Shown one piece after another: positions 7,857 through 51,241 of a stretch of DNA of 64,000 nucleotides; the first letter of the stretch is position 1; the number at the start of each line of letters is the position of its first letter. Origin of the DNA: an uncultured Spirochaetota bacterium. Its GTDB lineage: Bacteria; Spirochaetota; Spirochaetia; SZUA-6; Fen-1364. The stretch covers positions 768,001-832,000 of the forward strand of contig CAWAHW010000002.1 in assembly GCA_963781885.1 (NCBI GenBank), in the 5' to 3' direction. The notes under the pieces are model-generated. The model did no database searches and had not been told where the DNA came from. It saw nothing but the letters and a program-made list of their open reading frames with translations. The translations under genes were made by a program, and so were the position numbers.

Positions 7857-7998
7857 TGATGAAACCAGCGACTCTCAGTATGGTGACTGAATGATGCAGT
7901 TCTCATTTTGTCCCATGATAAATGACCGCTTTCTATGTGTGTCGTACACGTTCCAAACCCAAGAAGGCCCAAAATGAGACAAGCCGCATCGAGCATGG

Positions 7999-8580
7999 TT
8001 GCAGGCTCTTGAGTTGGAGGATCCGCTGGAGCAGTTGACTCTCACCGAGTACCGCTGCCAAGTCGACGAGCTGGAGGAGAAGTGTCGGCGGATCAAGGCG
8101 GGCATCGAAGAGATCGCGGCACGTAAAAGCTATGCCGAACCTGTAGCCAAGCTGAAGGCGTTCAAGGGCGTGGAGACGCTGATCGCCTTGTCGCTTGTTT
8201 CGGAGATCGGGGACTTTCGGCGCTTTGCAGGTGCGGATCAATTCATGGCGTTTTTGGGGTTGGTGCCCTCCGAGCGATCCAGCGGAAACAAGAGGCGCTT
8301 GGGAGGAATCACAAAGGCGGGTAATTCCCACCTGCGCAAACTTCTGGTGGAGGCCGCCTGGCAATACCGCAGCTACCATCCCAGTAGCACTCGGTTGATG
8401 AAACGACGCGAGGGTCTTTCTCCATCCTTGGTCAGCTATGCCAACCGTGCGTGCAGGCGGCTAAACAAGAAATTTCTGCGTCTGCTTTTTCGCGGCAAAG
8501 CTTCTCAGACCGTGGTGACGGCGGTGGCGCGAGAGCTCTCGGGGTTCCTGTGGGGCGCGATGGTTGATCGGGTGGCTTGA
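7999..8580 (+). pseudogene. IS110 transposase, C-terminal (Tnp20) half only
   Basis: Matches the last 193 aa of ORF 46273..47466, including GLVPSERSSG and GNSHLR. The DEDD domain is absent. Confidence 0.92.
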
Positions 8581-8847
8581 GGAGGCTGCGTATGCAATCG
8601 AGGCAACCGGGACGGATGGGGAAGGTTCGTGGCGAACGGAGAATCCTCGAGCGGTTCTGCAGGCAGACTATGGTCTGATCCTGGTAATGAGACGGAGGCA
8701 AGCTCCTGACGATCACATTGGCCTGCGGTAACCAATCCACGCATATCAGACTGGTCGATCGTCGGTTATGCCCTTCTCCATCTCTTCGGGTTGGCCTCGA
8801 TGTTCAGAAGGAGTTCTAAAGAAAAAAGGAGGCTTTTAGAGCTTGAC
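8581..8847 (+). ncRNA. Putative bridge/seek RNA in the IS right-end non-coding region (copy A); exact ends unknown
   Basis: Two stem-flanked internal loops (8644-8698, 8706-8765) carry segments matching the target (AGCGGTTCT, AATGAGA) and the donor junction (ATTG, CATATCAGAC). Confidence 0.75.
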
Positions 8848-8875
8848 GGGGGCACATCATATCAGAACTGCTGTG

Positions 8876-10456
8876 ATGAAACGTGTCCTCTTGACGTGCA
8901 TCGCGGCGGCGCTTGCGCTGCCGGCCCTTTTTGCCGACGACGCGGCGACGCCGCAGACTCTTTCACTCGGCGATCTGCCTGCCCTGGTGCTCGGTCACGA
9001 CACGGGCGCCGCGATCTCGGCGCAGACCACGCAGTTCGCCCTCCACACCTACCGGGGAGCCATCGCGCAGGCCCTTCCCCAGATCGACTTCACCTCCAAC
9101 TATTCCCTCGCCTATACGCCCCTGTACGAGTCGGAATCGATCAGCCTCGGAGTCCCCCCGTACGGCTTCGGGATAGACGACACGAAGACGCAGGACCAGG
9201 GGAATCACTTCCTGGACACGAAGCTTTCCCTGTCGCAGCTCCTGCCCACGGCGGGCAACCTCTTCTTCAGCCTCGAAAACAGCATGACGATCAGCGCCGT
9301 CGGCAGCCAGACGGTGAACGGCATCGCCGTGACCACGGCCGACACGCAGTTCAGCGAGAAGCCGAAGGTGAGCCTCAACCTCACGCAGCCGCTTCTCCTC
9401 AATGGCAAGCTGATCGACTTCGACCTCTTTCCCGCAACGCTCCGCAAGGCGGAGCTGGGCTATCTCGAGCAGGACGCCGCGGACATGGCGCAGAGGAACC
9501 AGCTCGTGGGTCAGGCCGTGCAGAGCTATCTCGCGGTCATCCAGCTTCGCCGGAATGTCGCCCAGACGCAGAAGAGCATCGACGTGACGCAGGGCAATCT
9601 CGACGTGATGGAGAAGAACTACTCGCTGGGGCTCGTGGCGGAGCCTGACCTGCTGGACGCGCGCATCGGCCTTTCCCGTCAGAAGCAGGCGCTCCTGGAG
9701 CTCTCCTCCACGCTCGCGAAGACCGAGCGCCTGCTCGCACACGCAATCGGCAGGACCGACGTTGCAGCCGTCGTGTTCTCGGAGGACATCCCGCCGCTCG
9801 CCTTCGGCCTCGGCCGCGAGGAGGCAGTGGCGCGGGCCTTCAGCGGTCACCCGCTCCTCCGTCAGAAGGGGCTCACCGCGGAGGAAAGGCGCCTGGACAC
9901 GATACTCGCCGGGCAGCAGTATGCCTCCACGCTGTCCCTTTCATTCTCCTGGTCGCCCCGTTACCCCTTCACCACGAACACGCCGTACATGACGGACTTC
10001 AACTCGTCGTTCTCCGATCTGTTCAAGACGGGCGCGGGAAACGATTACTCCCTCGCCGCGGGTCTCACGATCCACCTCTATGATGGCGGCAGCCAGAGGG
10101 AGGGTCTCGCGGGCCAGGCGGCGCTCGGTGCGGCCGCGGACCAGGGTCTGGTTGCCCAGAGGCAGGAGGTGCAGGACCAGGTGGAGCTGGACCTCCTGGA
10201 AATGGCGAGTCTCCAGGAAAAGGTGGCGCTGCTGGAAGAATCGGCGCGGCTGGACGAGCGGCGGCTCTCGACGGAGCAGAGCCTGCTCGCGTTGGGCAAG
10301 TCAACCGAGCTTGCGGTGGAGTCGAAGGCTGCCGACGTCGATGCCGGGGCAAACGAGCTGTGGCGCGCGCGGGCGGATCTCTATCTCACGATTCTGGACC
10401 TGCATTCCCTCACGGGGGATGACGTGGCGAAGATCGTCCAAGGAAACGGGAAATGA
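8876..10456 (+). CDS. TolC-family outer membrane efflux protein
   Basis: Signal peptide MKRVLLTCIAAAL and OEP-type repeats (ALPQIDFT, LTIHLYDGG). Confidence 0.85.
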   Translation: MKRVLLTCIAAALALPALFADDAATPQTLSLGDLPALVLGHDTGAAISAQTTQFALHTYRGAIAQALPQIDFTSNYSLAYTPLYESESISLGVPPYGFGIDDTKTQDQGNHFLDTKLSLSQLLPTAGNLFFSLENSMTISAVGSQTVNGIAVTTADTQFSEKPKVSLNLTQPLLLNGKLIDFDLFPATLRKAELGYLEQDAADMAQRNQLVGQAVQSYLAVIQLRRNVAQTQKSIDVTQGNLDVMEKNYSLGLVAEPDLLDARIGLSRQKQALLELSSTLAKTERLLAHAIGRTDVAAVVFSEDIPPLAFGLGREEAVARAFSGHPLLRQKGLTAEERRLDTILAGQQYASTLSLSFSWSPRYPFTTNTPYMTDFNSSFSDLFKTGAGNDYSLAAGLTIHLYDGGSQREGLAGQAALGAAADQGLVAQRQEVQDQVELDLLEMASLQEKVALLEESARLDERRLSTEQSLLALGKSTELAVESKAADVDAGANELWRARADLYLTILDLHSLTGDDVAKIVQGNGK

Positions 10457-31549: not shown

Positions 31550-31559
31550 GCGTCCACCA

Positions 31560-31680
31560 AAGCAGTTCTCATTTTAGACCTTCCGGAGACCTGGAACAGG
31601 TATGCACACTTTGAAAACGGCCGTCCCTCATGGGACAAAATGAGAACTGCATCATTCAGTCACCATACTGAGAGTCGCCG
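31560..31680 (-). mobile_element. MITE copy B (121 bp), uninterrupted
   Basis: 14-bp inverted arms GCAGTTCTCATTTT (31562-31575) and AAAATGAGAACTGC (31637-31650) plus a 30-bp extension. Flanked by CGTCCACC(A/C) at 31551-31559 and 31681-31689. Confidence 0.9.
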
Positions 31681-33304
31681 CGTCCACCCCCAGCACGCGG
31701 TGCTCCGGTGCAAAGGGGTCCGCGCAGTCGATCAGCTGGGACACGATCCTGTCGCCGTGCCGCGCGAGAAAGGGCAGCGCGCAAAGAGTCCGTTCCTGCA
31801 GGCCGCCCCGCGGCGCGAGCGTGGACACGAGTCTCTGCACCTTGCCGCGCAGGATCACGTTCTTCTTCCGCGCGGCCTGTGCGATCTTTTTTTCCAGCCG
31901 GTCGAGCTGCCACAGGGAACGCGACTTTCCAAGCTCCGCGGTCCTGTGCAGCGTCGCGTCCAGGCCGTCGATCTCTCCCACGATCCCGCGCCACGTCTCC
32001 TCCACGGCTGCGCGGCTCTGCGCCATCCGTGAGGTGAGGGAGGCGGGGATCTCCCGCTTGAGAATGTCGTCGATCACGCGCTCGCCGCGCCGCAGCGCCT
32101 GCACGAGACTCACGCCGAGCCGCGCCTGCAGCCGGCCCATCTTTTCGTCCATCAGGGTGAAGGAGGAGCGGGGCATCATGATCGGCATGGGGATGCCCAT
32201 GCGGTCGTAGGCGAGCGTGAGCTGCGCCCAATAGGCGATCTCGGACGGCCCCAGCACGGCGGCAAGCGTGGGGAAGACCGCGTCCTGGAAGAGGGGACGC
32301 AGCATCGCGTTCGGCGTGAATGCGTCGGGATCGGATTCGAACAGGTCCGCAAGCTCGCGCGGGGAAAAACGCCTGCCCGCGGACTTGAGCTGGTAGCCGT
32401 CGCCGGCAGTCAGGATCGCGTCGCGGCCGGGGGCCTGGTGGAAAAGGGTGAGGAAGCCCTGCCGCAGCTCGATCTGGGCGTGGAAACCGGCCTTCTCCAG
32501 ACGCGCGGTCTGCTCGAGGGCGGCATTCGTGACGGGGCTCTTCTCCAATATCTCCCGCCGGAAAAGGGGCATCGCCATTCTCTTCAGCCGCGCATCCGAG
32601 GGATCGACGAGCACGAGCCCCGTGCCGATGAAGAGACGCTTCATCCATGCCTTGAAAGCCTCGGTGTAGGTGCGTCCGGCAGCGTAGGCAACGCGCAGGT
32701 CGGCAATCATCTCGGCGGAGAATCCACCTTCCGGCAGCGCGGCGGAAAGCCCGTCGATCAGGGTGTCGACCTCCGCGCCCAGCGTGACGCGGGAAACGGG
32801 AATCTTTGCCGCGCCTCCACCAGGCATGCGCAGCTCCTGCAGCGCACCGTCACGGTCCGTGATCCACGCGTGATTGATCTCCTCCAGATCGCTGTCCTCC
32901 GAGGCGATCCAGAAGATCGGTATCACGGGCCGGCCGAGCTTCTTCTCCCGGCTGCGGGCAAGGGAAAGGATCGTGGCCGCCTTGTGAATGGTGTAGAGCG
33001 GCCCGCCGAACAAACCTGCCTGCTGGCCGCCGATCACCACGAGTGATTCCGGCTGCTCCAAGCGGGCGATGTTTTCCCCGACCGCCGTGTCGGCGTCCGC
33101 GCCCCCATTCTGATCGCGCAGGATGCCACAAAGCGACCTCCTGTCGTACGTCGCCGCATCCACCCGGCGCGCCTGCCGTTCGAAGACCCCCGGGTCCTGG
33201 AAGTGATGCGGCAGGAGGGCCGTCACGTCGGGACGCGCTTCCCAGAATCCGGCGTACAGACCGGTCGTGGAGGGGATGTCGCGCAGGGAGATGCTTTGAA
33301 CCAT
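31652..33304 (-). CDS. bshC: Bacillithiol biosynthesis cysteine-adding enzyme BshC
   Basis: GGQQAGLFGGPLYTIHKA, FWIASED, GPSEIAYWAQ and LQER motifs. Confidence 0.92.
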   Translation of the reverse strand: MVQSISLRDIPSTTGLYAGFWEARPDVTALLPHHFQDPGVFERQARRVDAATYDRRSLCGILRDQNGGADADTAVGENIARLEQPESLVVIGGQQAGLFGGPLYTIHKAATILSLARSREKKLGRPVIPIFWIASEDSDLEEINHAWITDRDGALQELRMPGGGAAKIPVSRVTLGAEVDTLIDGLSAALPEGGFSAEMIADLRVAYAAGRTYTEAFKAWMKRLFIGTGLVLVDPSDARLKRMAMPLFRREILEKSPVTNAALEQTARLEKAGFHAQIELRQGFLTLFHQAPGRDAILTAGDGYQLKSAGRRFSPRELADLFESDPDAFTPNAMLRPLFQDAVFPTLAAVLGPSEIAYWAQLTLAYDRMGIPMPIMMPRSSFTLMDEKMGRLQARLGVSLVQALRRGERVIDDILKREIPASLTSRMAQSRAAVEETWRGIVGEIDGLDATLHRTAELGKSRSLWQLDRLEKKIAQAARKKNVILRGKVQRLVSTLAPRGGLQERTLCALPFLARHGDRIVSQLIDCADPFAPEHRVLGVDAATLSMVTE

Positions 33305-45961: not shown

Positions 45962-46005
45962 CGGGCGGGCGCGCCGGGTCAGCAGTTCTGATATGATGTG
46001 CCCCC

Positions 46006-46272
46006 GTCAAGCTCTAAAAGCCTCCTTTTTTCTTTAGAACTCCTTCTGAACATCGAGGCCAACCCGAAGAGATGGAGAAGGGCATAACCGACGATCGACC
46101 AGTCTGATATGCGTGGATTGGTTACCGCAGGCCAATGTGATCGTCAGGAGCTTGCCTCCGTCTCATTACCAGGATCAGACCATAGTCTGCCTGCAGAACC
46201 GCTCGAGGATTCTCCGTTCGCCACGAACCTTCCCCATCCGTCCCGGTTGCCTCGATTGCATACGCAGCCTCC
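46006..46272 (-). ncRNA. Putative bridge/seek RNA (copy C); exact ends unknown
   Basis: Same sequence as 8581-8847. Target loop 46155-46209, donor loop 46088-46147. Confidence 0.75.
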
Positions 46273-47367
46273 TCAAGCCACCCGATCAACCATCGCGCCC
46301 CACAGGAACCCCGAGAGCTCTCGCGCCACCGCCGTCACCACGGTCTGAGAAGCTTTGCCGCGAAAAAGCAGACGCAGAAATTTCTTGTTTAGCCGCCTGC
46401 ACGCACGGTTGGCATAGCTGACCAAGGATGGAGAAAGACCCTCGCGTCGTTTCATCAACCGAGTGCTACTGGGATGGTAGCTGCGGTATTGCCAGGCGGC
46501 CTCCACCAGAAGTTTGCGCAGGTGGGAATTACCCGCCTTTGTGATTCCTCCCAAGCGCCTCTTGTTTCCGCTGGATCGCTCGGAGGGCACCAACCCCAAA
46601 AACGCCATGAATTGATCCGCACCTGCAAAGCGCCGAAAGTCCCCGATCTCCGAAACAAGCGACAAGGCGATCAGCGTCTCCACGCCCTTGAACGCCTTCA
46701 GCTTGGCTACAGGTTCGGCATAGCTTTTACGTGCCGCGATCTCTTCGATGCCCGCCTTGATCCGCCGACACTTCTCCTCCAGCTCGTCGACTTGGCAGCG
46801 GTACTCGGTGAGAGTCAACTGCTCCAGCGGATCCTCCAACTCAAGAGCCTGCAACCATGCTCGATGCGGCTGCGTCCATGTGGCTCCTTGTTCATAACGT
46901 ATCCGCCTCCGCAGAAGAAAACCCAGCACGCGCTGCTTGGCCTTGCGCAGATCGGACTTCATGTCCTCCAGCATTCGTAGATAGTCGCGAACCGCTTCGT
47001 CTTCCCGCGTGGGTACATGAACGGCACTCACATCCCCGCTCCGAAGTGCGCGAGCAAGCATCACAGCGTCCCTTCTATCGGTCTTTATGCGATCTCCCGG
47101 ACGATGTGGAATCTGAGACGGAGCCAGCACCGCACACGGCACACCCAGTTCCGTCAATTGTCGATACAGGGAATACCCTAGACATCCCGCCTCGTAGCAT
47201 GTCACCAGGTCCCCCGCGGACTGGAGCTTCTTGAAATAGGCCTGGATTACGCTCTTTTCATTGCGAATCACCGTCTCGGCCCTCGGCTTCTGATCGCGCC
47301 CGCTCAGGATCGCTATGGCGATCTTTTCTTTGTCGACGTCCATGCCAACGTAATGTACAATACCCAT
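46273..47367 (-). CDS. IS110-family recombinase (DEDD + Tnp20), 364 aa
   Basis: GMDVDK, CYEAG and KTDRRDA (DEDD) plus the GLVPSERSSG serine loop. RBS AAGGGGG before ATG 47367. Confidence 0.97.
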   Translation of the reverse strand: MGIVHYVGMDVDKEKIAIAILSGRDQKPRAETVIRNEKSVIQAYFKKLQSAGDLVTCYEAGCLGYSLYRQLTELGVPCAVLAPSQIPHRPGDRIKTDRRDAVMLARALRSGDVSAVHVPTREDEAVRDYLRMLEDMKSDLRKAKQRVLGFLLRRRIRYEQGATWTQPHRAWLQALELEDPLEQLTLTEYRCQVDELEEKCRRIKAGIEEIAARKSYAEPVAKLKAFKGVETLIALSLVSEIGDFRRFAGADQFMAFLGLVPSERSSGNKRRLGGITKAGNSHLRKLLVEAAWQYRSYHPSSTRLMKRREGLSPSLVSYANRACRRLNKKFLRLLFRGKASQTVVTAVARELSGFLWGAMVDRVA

Positions 47368-47669
47368 GACTGCCCCCTTGTGCGTTGTTTGTGGCGTGCC
47401 GCATCGAGACGCCAATCTCATGATACGGCCGATCCACGTTGTAGCAACCACCTGGGGGCACTTCATATTGTCTCATTTTGGACCTTTCTGAGGTCTGGAA
47501 CGTATGCAGACTTGGAAAACGGCCTTTCATTAAGGGACAAAATGAGAACTGCATCATTCAGTCACCATACTGAGAATTGCTGGCGCCGGGTTTCTTGTCA
47601 CAACCGGCGATTTGCGATAGTATCCCTGTCAAAGTCCTCAACACCCTTTCACGAAAGAAGGTTTCACAT

Positions 47670-51241
<3,572 letters not shown>

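Follow-up and report, generated by a model that had tools for sequence, protein, structure and literature searches.

An IS1111-type insertion sequence in the right arm of a MITE of an uncultured Spirochaetota bacterium and its predicted guide RNA

Organization of the locus

The window analyzed here is a 64,000-nucleotide stretch of contig CAWAHW010000002.1 (GenBank assembly GCA_963781885.1, positions 768,001 to 832,000 of the forward strand) from an uncultured Spirochaetota bacterium. Positions 45971-47591 contain a miniature inverted-repeat transposable element (MITE) of about 121 bp that holds an insertion sequence (IS) of 1481 bp, and the nested unit is bounded exactly by two copies of a 9-bp duplication. 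The IS and the predicted RNA that would direct it to the MITE are the subject of this report. The features of the locus, followed by two further MITE copies of the window, are:

45971..45979, no strand: 9-bp target-site duplication GCGCCGGGT, abutting the MITE right tip (read from the junction)
45980..45989, minus strand: MITE right tip, detached by the IS, CAGCAGTTCT on the plus strand; one copy of the crossover core, AG/AGA in transposase orientation, makes up its last 2-3 nt
45990..47470, minus strand: IS1111-type insertion sequence, 1481 bp plus one core copy, with bounds taken from comparison with empty MITEs
45991..46005, minus strand: right subterminal inverted repeat, GGGGGCACATCATAT in transposase orientation (sequence comparison)
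46059..46250, minus strand: structured non-coding RNA of ~190 nt in the 3' non-coding region, a bridge RNA or seekRNA candidate (conserved fold)
46102..46111, minus strand: candidate donor-binding guide CATATCAGAC, which repeats the sequence of the right end, core and first two left-end bases
46160..46167, minus strand: putative bottom-strand guide 5'-AAUGAGAC-3', the same as target AATGAGA plus the first IS base; 7/7 with its own left flank
46195..46203, minus strand: putative top-strand guide 5'-AGCGGUUCU-3', which can pair with target 5'-AGAACTGCT-3' by 8 Watson-Crick pairs and 1 G.T pair
46273..47370, minus strand: transposase gene, 365 aa, with a DEDD N-terminal domain and a C-terminal domain containing GLVPSERSSG (PF01548, PF02371, NF033542)
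47454..47468, minus strand: left subterminal inverted repeat, ATATGAAGTGCCCCC in transposase orientation (sequence comparison)
47471..47582, minus strand: MITE body and left arm; the first 3 nt are the second core copy, and the outer left inverted repeat is CAGCAATTCTCAG
47538..47552, plus strand: inner inverted target copy CAAAATGAGAACTGC in the MITE left arm, never occupied (0/13 such copies carry an IS)
47583..47591, no strand: second copy of the target-site duplication GCGCCGGGT (read from the junction; a single 9-mer in the congeneric genome G005)
7857..8882, plus strand: second occupied MITE including its duplications; body 7866-7977, tip 8864-8873, IS ~7978-8863
7857-7865 and 8874-8882: duplication of the second occupied MITE, GTTTCATCA in the minus-strand reading and TGATGAAAC on the plus strand
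31550..31688, minus strand: empty MITE including its duplications, target intact; MITE 31559-31679, with GCGTCCACC at 31550-31558 and 31680-31688

The IS lies 8 nt plus the core away from the MITE right tip. In transposase orientation the left junction is ...GGTCCAAAATG-AGA/CAATATGAAGTGCCCCC... (AAAATG-AGA/CAATATG..., where the slash marks the boundary), and the right junction is ...GGGGGCACATCATATC/AGA-ACTGCTG (...CATATC/AGA-ACTGCTG), after which the duplication begins. The uninterrupted MITE at 31559-31679 reads AAAATGAGAACTGC (...AAAATGAGAACTGCTT). An initial annotation of the window had given the junctions as AAAATG-AGA/CAA and CATATC-AGA/ACTGCTG and had described an uninterrupted repeat that runs through AGA, and the sequence reads as it claimed. 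It had also described two IS copies at the same MITE position, identical where they overlap. Position and identity are correct, but the second copy is internally deleted and not full. It lacks 597 bp (the counterpart of 46872-47467), and with them the left repeat and the transposase N-terminus, while the remaining ~882-892 nt are 100% identical to the first copy. A core-mediated origin of this deletion was considered and rejected; because the deletion junction GAGACA/AGCCGC does not fit recombination at AG, we read it as an ordinary deletion with 1-nt microhomology.

The MITE::IS unit lies upstream of a 1222-aa open reading frame (ORF), its end 79 bp from the start codon at 47670 (region 47592-47670). 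Judged by eye, this ORF resembles a pyruvate:ferredoxin oxidoreductase gene.

The transposase contains both Pfam domains of the family, PF01548 (E 3e-13) and PF02371 (E 4e-22), and scores 237 bits against the NCBIfam model NF033542, 'IS110 family RNA-guided transposase', for which the cut-off is 140. These matches bear out the earlier IS110/IS1111 assignment; the match to the IS621 transposase is distant (E 1e-7). By its sequence marks the element is a member of the IS1111 group within the IS110 family, since it has the subterminal repeats, the downstream non-coding region and the C-terminal motif given for that group in PMC11187229. The subterminal inverted repeats, ATATGA[A/T]GTGCCCCC, are 15 bp long with 1 mismatch (the group has 11-13 bp or longer), lie 2-3 nt inside each end and are kept in relatives. 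Non-coding DNA amounts to 283 nt downstream of the transposase gene versus ~100 nt upstream. GLVPSERSSG in the ORF translation fits GL-P----S(t)G, which PMC11187229 defines as the C-terminal motif of the IS1111 group. The terminal extension lengths (7/3 bp in the IS1111 group) depend on the placing of the core, which is assignable to either IS end.

Assemblies labelled Spirochaetaceae/Spirochaetota, Pirellulales, Terriglobales, NC10 and Deferrisomatales hold relatives with 59-67% amino-acid identity that have the same repeats and a long non-coding stretch after the gene. In two of these records the flanks are the same as at loci in the congeners G018 and G009. The motif TTGAC just inside the right repeat is invariant in 9/9 homologs. 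It would stand ~17-18 nt upstream of the left-end CAATAT once the IS is circular, and by analogy with the family literature it is a candidate -35 element of a circle-junction promoter.

Copies of the IS and the MITE in the genome

The genome assembly of the window (G000; seven contigs, C1 etc., 4.64 Mb) contains nine IS copies found by Blast, of which seven are full, one is cut by a run of N and one is the internally deleted copy. The nine copies are 99.87-100% identical, and the seven full ones have 0-2 differences over 1484 nt. All nine lie in a MITE at the identical base and in one orientation relative to it, with the right junction unread in the one copy inside which a run of 16000 N (approximately G000:C4:144001-160000) ends. 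Chance is ruled out for this shared position because the 13 MITEs of the genome span only ~1.6 kb out of 4.64 Mb. The initial annotation had proposed that the IS targets the terminal arm of the repeat, and the genome-wide tabulation finds 0/9 copies outside the MITE or elsewhere in it. Single-base variants occur at IS positions 264 and 741, each singly in one copy and jointly in C6:138596, and this pattern suggests recombination or conversion between IS copies.

The insertion is site- and orientation-specific in 9/9 copies; only a 2-3-nt core is common to both junctions, and there is no true target duplication. The AGA found at both junctions is the shared crossover core, which is probably AG and not AGA because the right flank of some relatives starts AGT. 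The core dinucleotide of IS621 is CT, the complement of this AG.

The small element of ~121 bp is a true MITE. It is 119-122 bp long, non-coding and multi-copy, with 13 matches in G000 and 21 and 9 in the congeneric genomes G005 and G019, respectively. Its 18-nt ends, CAGCAATTCTCAGTATGG and CAGCAGTTCTCATTTTGG, agree at 15/18 positions (counted by eye). Among the 12 fully recoverable copies in G000 the 9-bp duplications are perfect in 10, match at 8/9 in one and at 6/9 in another, in keeping with the earlier statement that each repeat copy has a duplication of its own. Four of the 13 G000 MITEs are empty: two have the tip ...CTGCTT in place of ...CTGCTG, one carries a 1-bp deletion in the target, and one has a perfect target. 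Counted over intact MITE targets, occupancy is 9/12. The empty MITE with the deletion (G000:C6:136170-136300) has the target AAAATGAGA-CTGCTG; the deletion could be a simple mutation that protects the site, and nothing points to an excision footprint.

The MITEs are older than the IS insertions. A sequence search with the IS found zero matches in the congeners G005 and G019, from which 20 and 8 full-length uninterrupted MITEs, respectively, were recovered, the majority flanked by duplications of their own. Neither MITE nor IS is present at the orthologous locus in G005; the 9-mer GCGCCGGGT occurs there once, and the upstream gene directly adjoins the region upstream of the pyruvate:ferredoxin oxidoreductase-like gene. 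In G000 pairwise identity among the occupied MITEs ranges over 66-95% (median 77%, 28 pairs among 8), with at least two core types, while the IS copies inside them are near-identical, and we therefore conclude that MITEs already present and diverged received the IS individually. In one MITE pair with 99% identity, a single member is occupied and its partner is empty. Recent and independent insertion into older, diverged MITE copies, as the initial annotation proposed, is thus supported.

A candidate for the element that moves the MITE came to light in a 13-mer scan for MITE ends in which 3 mismatches were allowed (633 hits, mostly noise). It is an IS of 1653 bp with three identical copies in G000 (C1:278052-279704, C4:220865-222517 and C6:77551-79203), 9-bp duplications, and ends CAGCAATTCGCATTATGG and CAGCAATTCTAACTATGG that are similar to the MITE ends. 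Its 446-aa ORF matches DDE_Tnp_1 and DDE_Tnp_1_assoc below the Pfam cut-offs, and a match to IS4 is also sub-threshold, so that the element may represent a poorly described DDE family. From the similarity of the ends, this DDE-transposase IS probably mobilises the MITE, and a MITE that is itself spread in this manner is plausible as a renewable landing pad for the IS1111-type element. At G000:C1:278040-281330 the 1653-bp IS adjoins an occupied MITE and the 9-mer GCTTCTCGG occurs three times around them, which reads as one target used twice in succession.

The 9-bp duplication flanking every occupied unit also invites the idea of a composite, in which the IS entered one MITE once and the resulting MITE::IS unit of ~1.6 kb was then spread by the MITE transposase. 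A DDE IS with similar ends and 9-bp duplications does exist in three identical copies, and the unit is about as long as this IS. Co-transposed units should, however, have MITE parts as alike as their IS parts, and the values given above (MITE parts 66-95% identical with at least two core types, IS parts with at most 2 differences in 1484 nt) are at odds with this expectation. In addition, a DDE transposase should be poorly able to recognise a right terminal repeat that is severed 8 nt from its tip. Composite movement is excluded for most or all copies, and as a general explanation we hold it to be very unlikely. The possibility that the 'MITE' in fact belongs to the IS, forming extended ends of it or an IS-derived satellite like MITEPpu9 of ISPpu9, has a negligible probability. 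Such an origin would account for the adjacency of IS and repeat in 9/9 G000 copies, and ISPpu9 is accompanied by a MITE-like module (PMC12288879), but 4 MITEs in G000 are empty and 28 are uninterrupted in two genomes without an IS match. Moreover, the repeat has its own inverted repeats and 9-bp duplications, which are not made by IS110-family elements, and a Blast search of the 1484-bp IS against the genome gave IS copies only; IS and MITE are therefore without detectable common sequence. Separate insertions of an independent IS into resident MITEs remain the preferred reading.

The predicted guide RNA and the choice of target

When the 3' regions of nine elements are aligned, two short variable segments stand out amid conserved sequence. 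In the window the first segment, AGCGGTTCT, is the complement of AGAACTGCT from the right junction apart from one G.T pair, and the second, AATGAGAC, equals the left junction. The top-strand match precedes (is 5' of) the bottom-strand match, the two being ~30 nt apart, and they overlap at the core AG(A). The first segment shifts with the flank in relatives: AGGAATTCT is found with AGAATTCCT, AGCAATTCT with AGAATTGCT, and AACTGAACT with AGTTCAGTT. In a matrix of own versus cross pairings the window element scores 8.5/9 for its own flank, and the relatives L002, L003 and L004-6 each score 9/9 (relatives are numbered L001 etc.; a metagenome scan added 57 loci).

For a wider comparison, guide and right flank were extracted by motif from 31 loci, which gave 22 distinct combinations. 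The pairing of a guide with its own flank has a mean of 6.93/9, compared with 4.88 +/- 0.32 for shuffled combinations, and 0/10000 shuffles reached the observed value. Where the target of relatives in a second group alternates between C and G (AGTTCAGTT or AGTTGAGTT), the guide changes to match.

In each of the nine elements a 200-nt segment that includes both guides has a predicted fold with a long closing stem around two modules. This segment was used in place of the last 220 nt, for which the fold of a single alignment missed the closing stem. The consensus fold has 46 pairs with 99% of cells paired and 13 compensatory pairs (2-4 in slid controls), and 0/500 shuffles reached the observed values; the inner hairpin, whose register is not the same in the two groups of relatives, was left out of the scoring. 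An internal loop, bounded by the stem CCTC/GAGG and by the inner hairpin, holds one target guide on each of its sides. The second module contains CATATCAGAC, the candidate donor-binding guide. Within it ATATCAG is invariant in 9/9 homologs, and the donor ends are likewise invariant. For the other donor strand there is just a 4-5-nt candidate, ATTG. Covariation of guide and flank together with the conserved fold supports an RNA-guided choice of target, which the initial annotation had proposed from general knowledge of the family.

We consider it highly probable that the element is an active or recently active IS1111-type IS whose target is set by a bridge RNA or seekRNA from the 283-nt downstream region. 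The internal loop of this RNA would expose 9 nt complementary to the top strand (AGAACTGCT) and 7-8 nt (AATGAGA+C) that repeat the top strand itself. Jointly, these guides would specify AATG-AG-AACTGCT, a sequence that in G000 is nearly confined to the right terminal arm of the MITE. The MITE would have been mobilised earlier, probably by the 1653-bp DDE IS with similar ends, and the IS would then recombine at the core, 8 nt from the MITE tip and in a single orientation, thereby splitting the terminal repeat. The remaining steps follow from the published mechanism of the family: the IS would be excised as a circle, a promoter would form at its junction, the RNA would be expressed and processed, and one of its loops would bind the donor. 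The predicted circle junction is ...CATATC-AG-ACAATATG....

Several points weigh against this reading. The MITE left arm carries the inverted target copy CAAAATGAGAACTGC, identical over 15 nt, and it is occupied in 0/13 cases. Four perfect 13-nt targets are empty, namely three MITE arms and one non-MITE site. Guide and flank also disagree in some relatives: L001/L065 pair at 5.5/9 and L007, L069 and L090 at <=2/9, values that may in some of these loci reflect wrong extraction of the guide. For L001/L065 the guide (reverse complement AGAATTGCA) misfits the right flank AGAAGCTTA, and the other end of the host IS, seen in L091, gave no explanation. Rfam matched no bridge-RNA family to the element and returned two chance-level hits (E > 3). 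Expression of the RNA and the circle junction are predicted. Finally, the transposase of 365 aa (start aligned with relatives) slightly exceeds the 330-350 aa of IS1111-family transposases (PMC11187229), though its relatives are equally long.

In the unused left arm the match is followed by A or G, where the 9-nt guide would call for T. Sites with T at this 9th position are occupied in 9/13 cases and sites without T in 0/13 (Fisher p = 0.0005). The simplest reading would be that the 9th guide pair is needed, yet a single distal mismatch is a thin explanation. A structural gate on the choice of arm, like that reported for ISPpu10, is an alternative.

If this thought is extended, the target would be chosen mainly by protein or DNA structure, with the transposase recognising the palindromic or hairpin context of the MITE and the RNA matches being secondary. 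The empty inner copy in 0/13 MITEs and the perfect non-MITE 13-mer at G000:C4:720262, which is also empty, would fit this explanation, and in a 2026 preprint a target stem-loop is reported to act as a second specificity layer for ISPpu10 (10.64898/2026.03.19.712850). It nevertheless leaves the covariation of guide and flank across relatives with quite different targets without a cause, and some relatives occupy the same position in the repeats of full-length, non-palindromic ISs. We therefore regard structure as unlikely to be the main determinant; a structural layer may supplement RNA guidance but not substitute for it, and guidance by the predicted RNA is the reading followed below.

The non-MITE target at G000:C4:720262, AATGAGAACTGCT, lies next to an apparent gene start on the opposite strand, and another mobile element may end there.

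Relatives and comparison with known systems

Relatives of the IS are themselves found in the ends of DDE elements. Four relative sets sit ~100 bp upstream of homologous transposase genes that read away from the IS, as identified by tblastn with the 446-aa ORF. The host transposases are 57% (L001/L065/L091), 57% (L066), 56% (L067) and 46% (L003) identical to this ORF, and L001, L065 and L091 are counted as one event because one flank is common to all three. The flanks in these host ISs resemble the same terminal repeat (L067 has TCTCATTATGGCC, for example, and L003 has TCTAAATG after CAGCAATT), and the element is inserted where it is in the MITE, 8 nt from the tip and then the core. L093 lies inside a related palindromic MITE-like element, and the right flanks of L002, L068, L094 and L113 are like repeat tips, AGAAYTSCTG. 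A search of the relatives' left flanks for inverted repeats of the right tip gave nothing convincing. The guide of the window IS fits the MITE right arm rather than the ends of the candidate parent IS in the same genome.

From these flanks, the subgroup appears to be a specialist for the termini of one DDE IS family and of its MITEs. A stronger version, that the lineage is a dedicated parasite of this DDE IS family and its MITEs across several phyla, with at least four independent events and a guide retuned for each host repeat variant, we put forward tentatively, with a chance slightly under even. If it is true, the copy number of the IS would be capped by the number of host-element ends, each insertion would disable one host end, and a two-level transposon ecology would be traceable in genomes.

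In L003:1-1119 (Pirellulales) the transposase ORF of the host IS ends after ~195 aa and is followed by a 373-aa reverse-transcriptase ORF (PF00078, E 1e-34), an arrangement that reads as nested mobile elements. A second group of relatives (L004-L008, L070-L084 and others; 58-66% protein identity) occupies the site ...ACATAGAG/TTSAGYTGCC... in many unrelated metagenome contigs, so that its target is evidently also a repeated element. With the 446-aa ORF as the tblastn query, no parent-like transposase was found near the loci of this second group.

The closest parallel to the IS-MITE pair is IS1111 of Coxiella burnetii, which inserts into the MITE QMITE2; 20 copies are known there, and the MITE predates the insertions (PMC5896051, Wachter et al. 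2018). QMITE2 is 150-190 bp long with direct repeats of 7-11 nt, mostly 9 nt (PMC5896051). In both cases an IS1111-family element uses an older MITE as its landing site. However, the target inside QMITE2 is a palindrome like the repetitive extragenic palindromic (REP) elements, while here it is a terminal inverted-repeat arm, 8 nt from the tip. The two cases also belong to different phyla, the window being from Spirochaetota, and the MITE and target sequences are unrelated. Another parallel is given by IS4321/IS5075, whose targets are transposon terminal inverted repeats (Tn21), according to a title cited in PMC11187229. There too, an IS1111-family element sits in the terminal repeat of another transposon in one orientation and splits the host end. 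The host in that case is a Tn3-family transposon with a different target, whereas the host of the window IS is a DDE IS family weakly similar to the IS4 type, together with the MITE derived from it.

Other members of the family target REPs and attC sites (PMC12288879, PMC11187229, PMC1525189). ISPpu9, ISPpu10 and ISPa11 are IS110-family elements that, like the window IS, reside in short repeated palindromic non-coding elements (PMC12288879, PMC1525189), but REPs are not transposed with target duplications, and here the target is a true MITE with a candidate parent IS.

RNA guidance and natural reprogramming are established for the family (PMC11187229; PMC11208160). With the seekRNA-guided IS1111-family elements ISEc11, ISKpn4, ISPst6 and ISPa11 (Siddiquee et al. 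2024, PMC11187229) the window IS has in common the subterminal repeats, a non-coding region that follows the transposase gene, and guide segments that are naturally reprogrammed from relative to relative; in both, the match to the top strand comes 5' of that to the bottom strand, and the two overlap at the crossover. It differs in that the mature seekRNA is 70-100 nt long, compared with a conserved fold of ~190 nt in an RNA that is predicted here, and in that the targets there are a linear site, attC and REP (PMC11187229). With IS621 it shares a DEDD recombinase and a dinucleotide core; the structured RNA of IS621, which has a target loop and a separate donor loop (PMC11208160, PMC11208158), has a predicted counterpart here whose donor loop is a candidate. 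IS621, in contrast, belongs to the IS110 group, has its RNA upstream of the gene and is without subterminal repeats, and the similarity of the proteins is weak (E 1e-7).

The literature search, which did not extend to ISfinder, found no description of this IS, this MITE or the host IS family. The landing of an IS1111-type element in a MITE or a transposon repeat is already in print, and the pair is a clean new example that leaves the understanding of the mechanism unchanged. Its value is that of a well-resolved natural case, with a defined 13-14-nt target, a predicted guide RNA of ~190 nt and near-saturated sites. Each 121-bp element also provides a natural experiment, in which two target copies identical over 15 nt are present and one is used, and this points to the 9th guide position or the local DNA structure as the determinant. 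The link of the lineage to the repeats of a DDE IS family would extend the IS4321/Tn21 observation to IS-on-IS parasitism in environmental bacteria.

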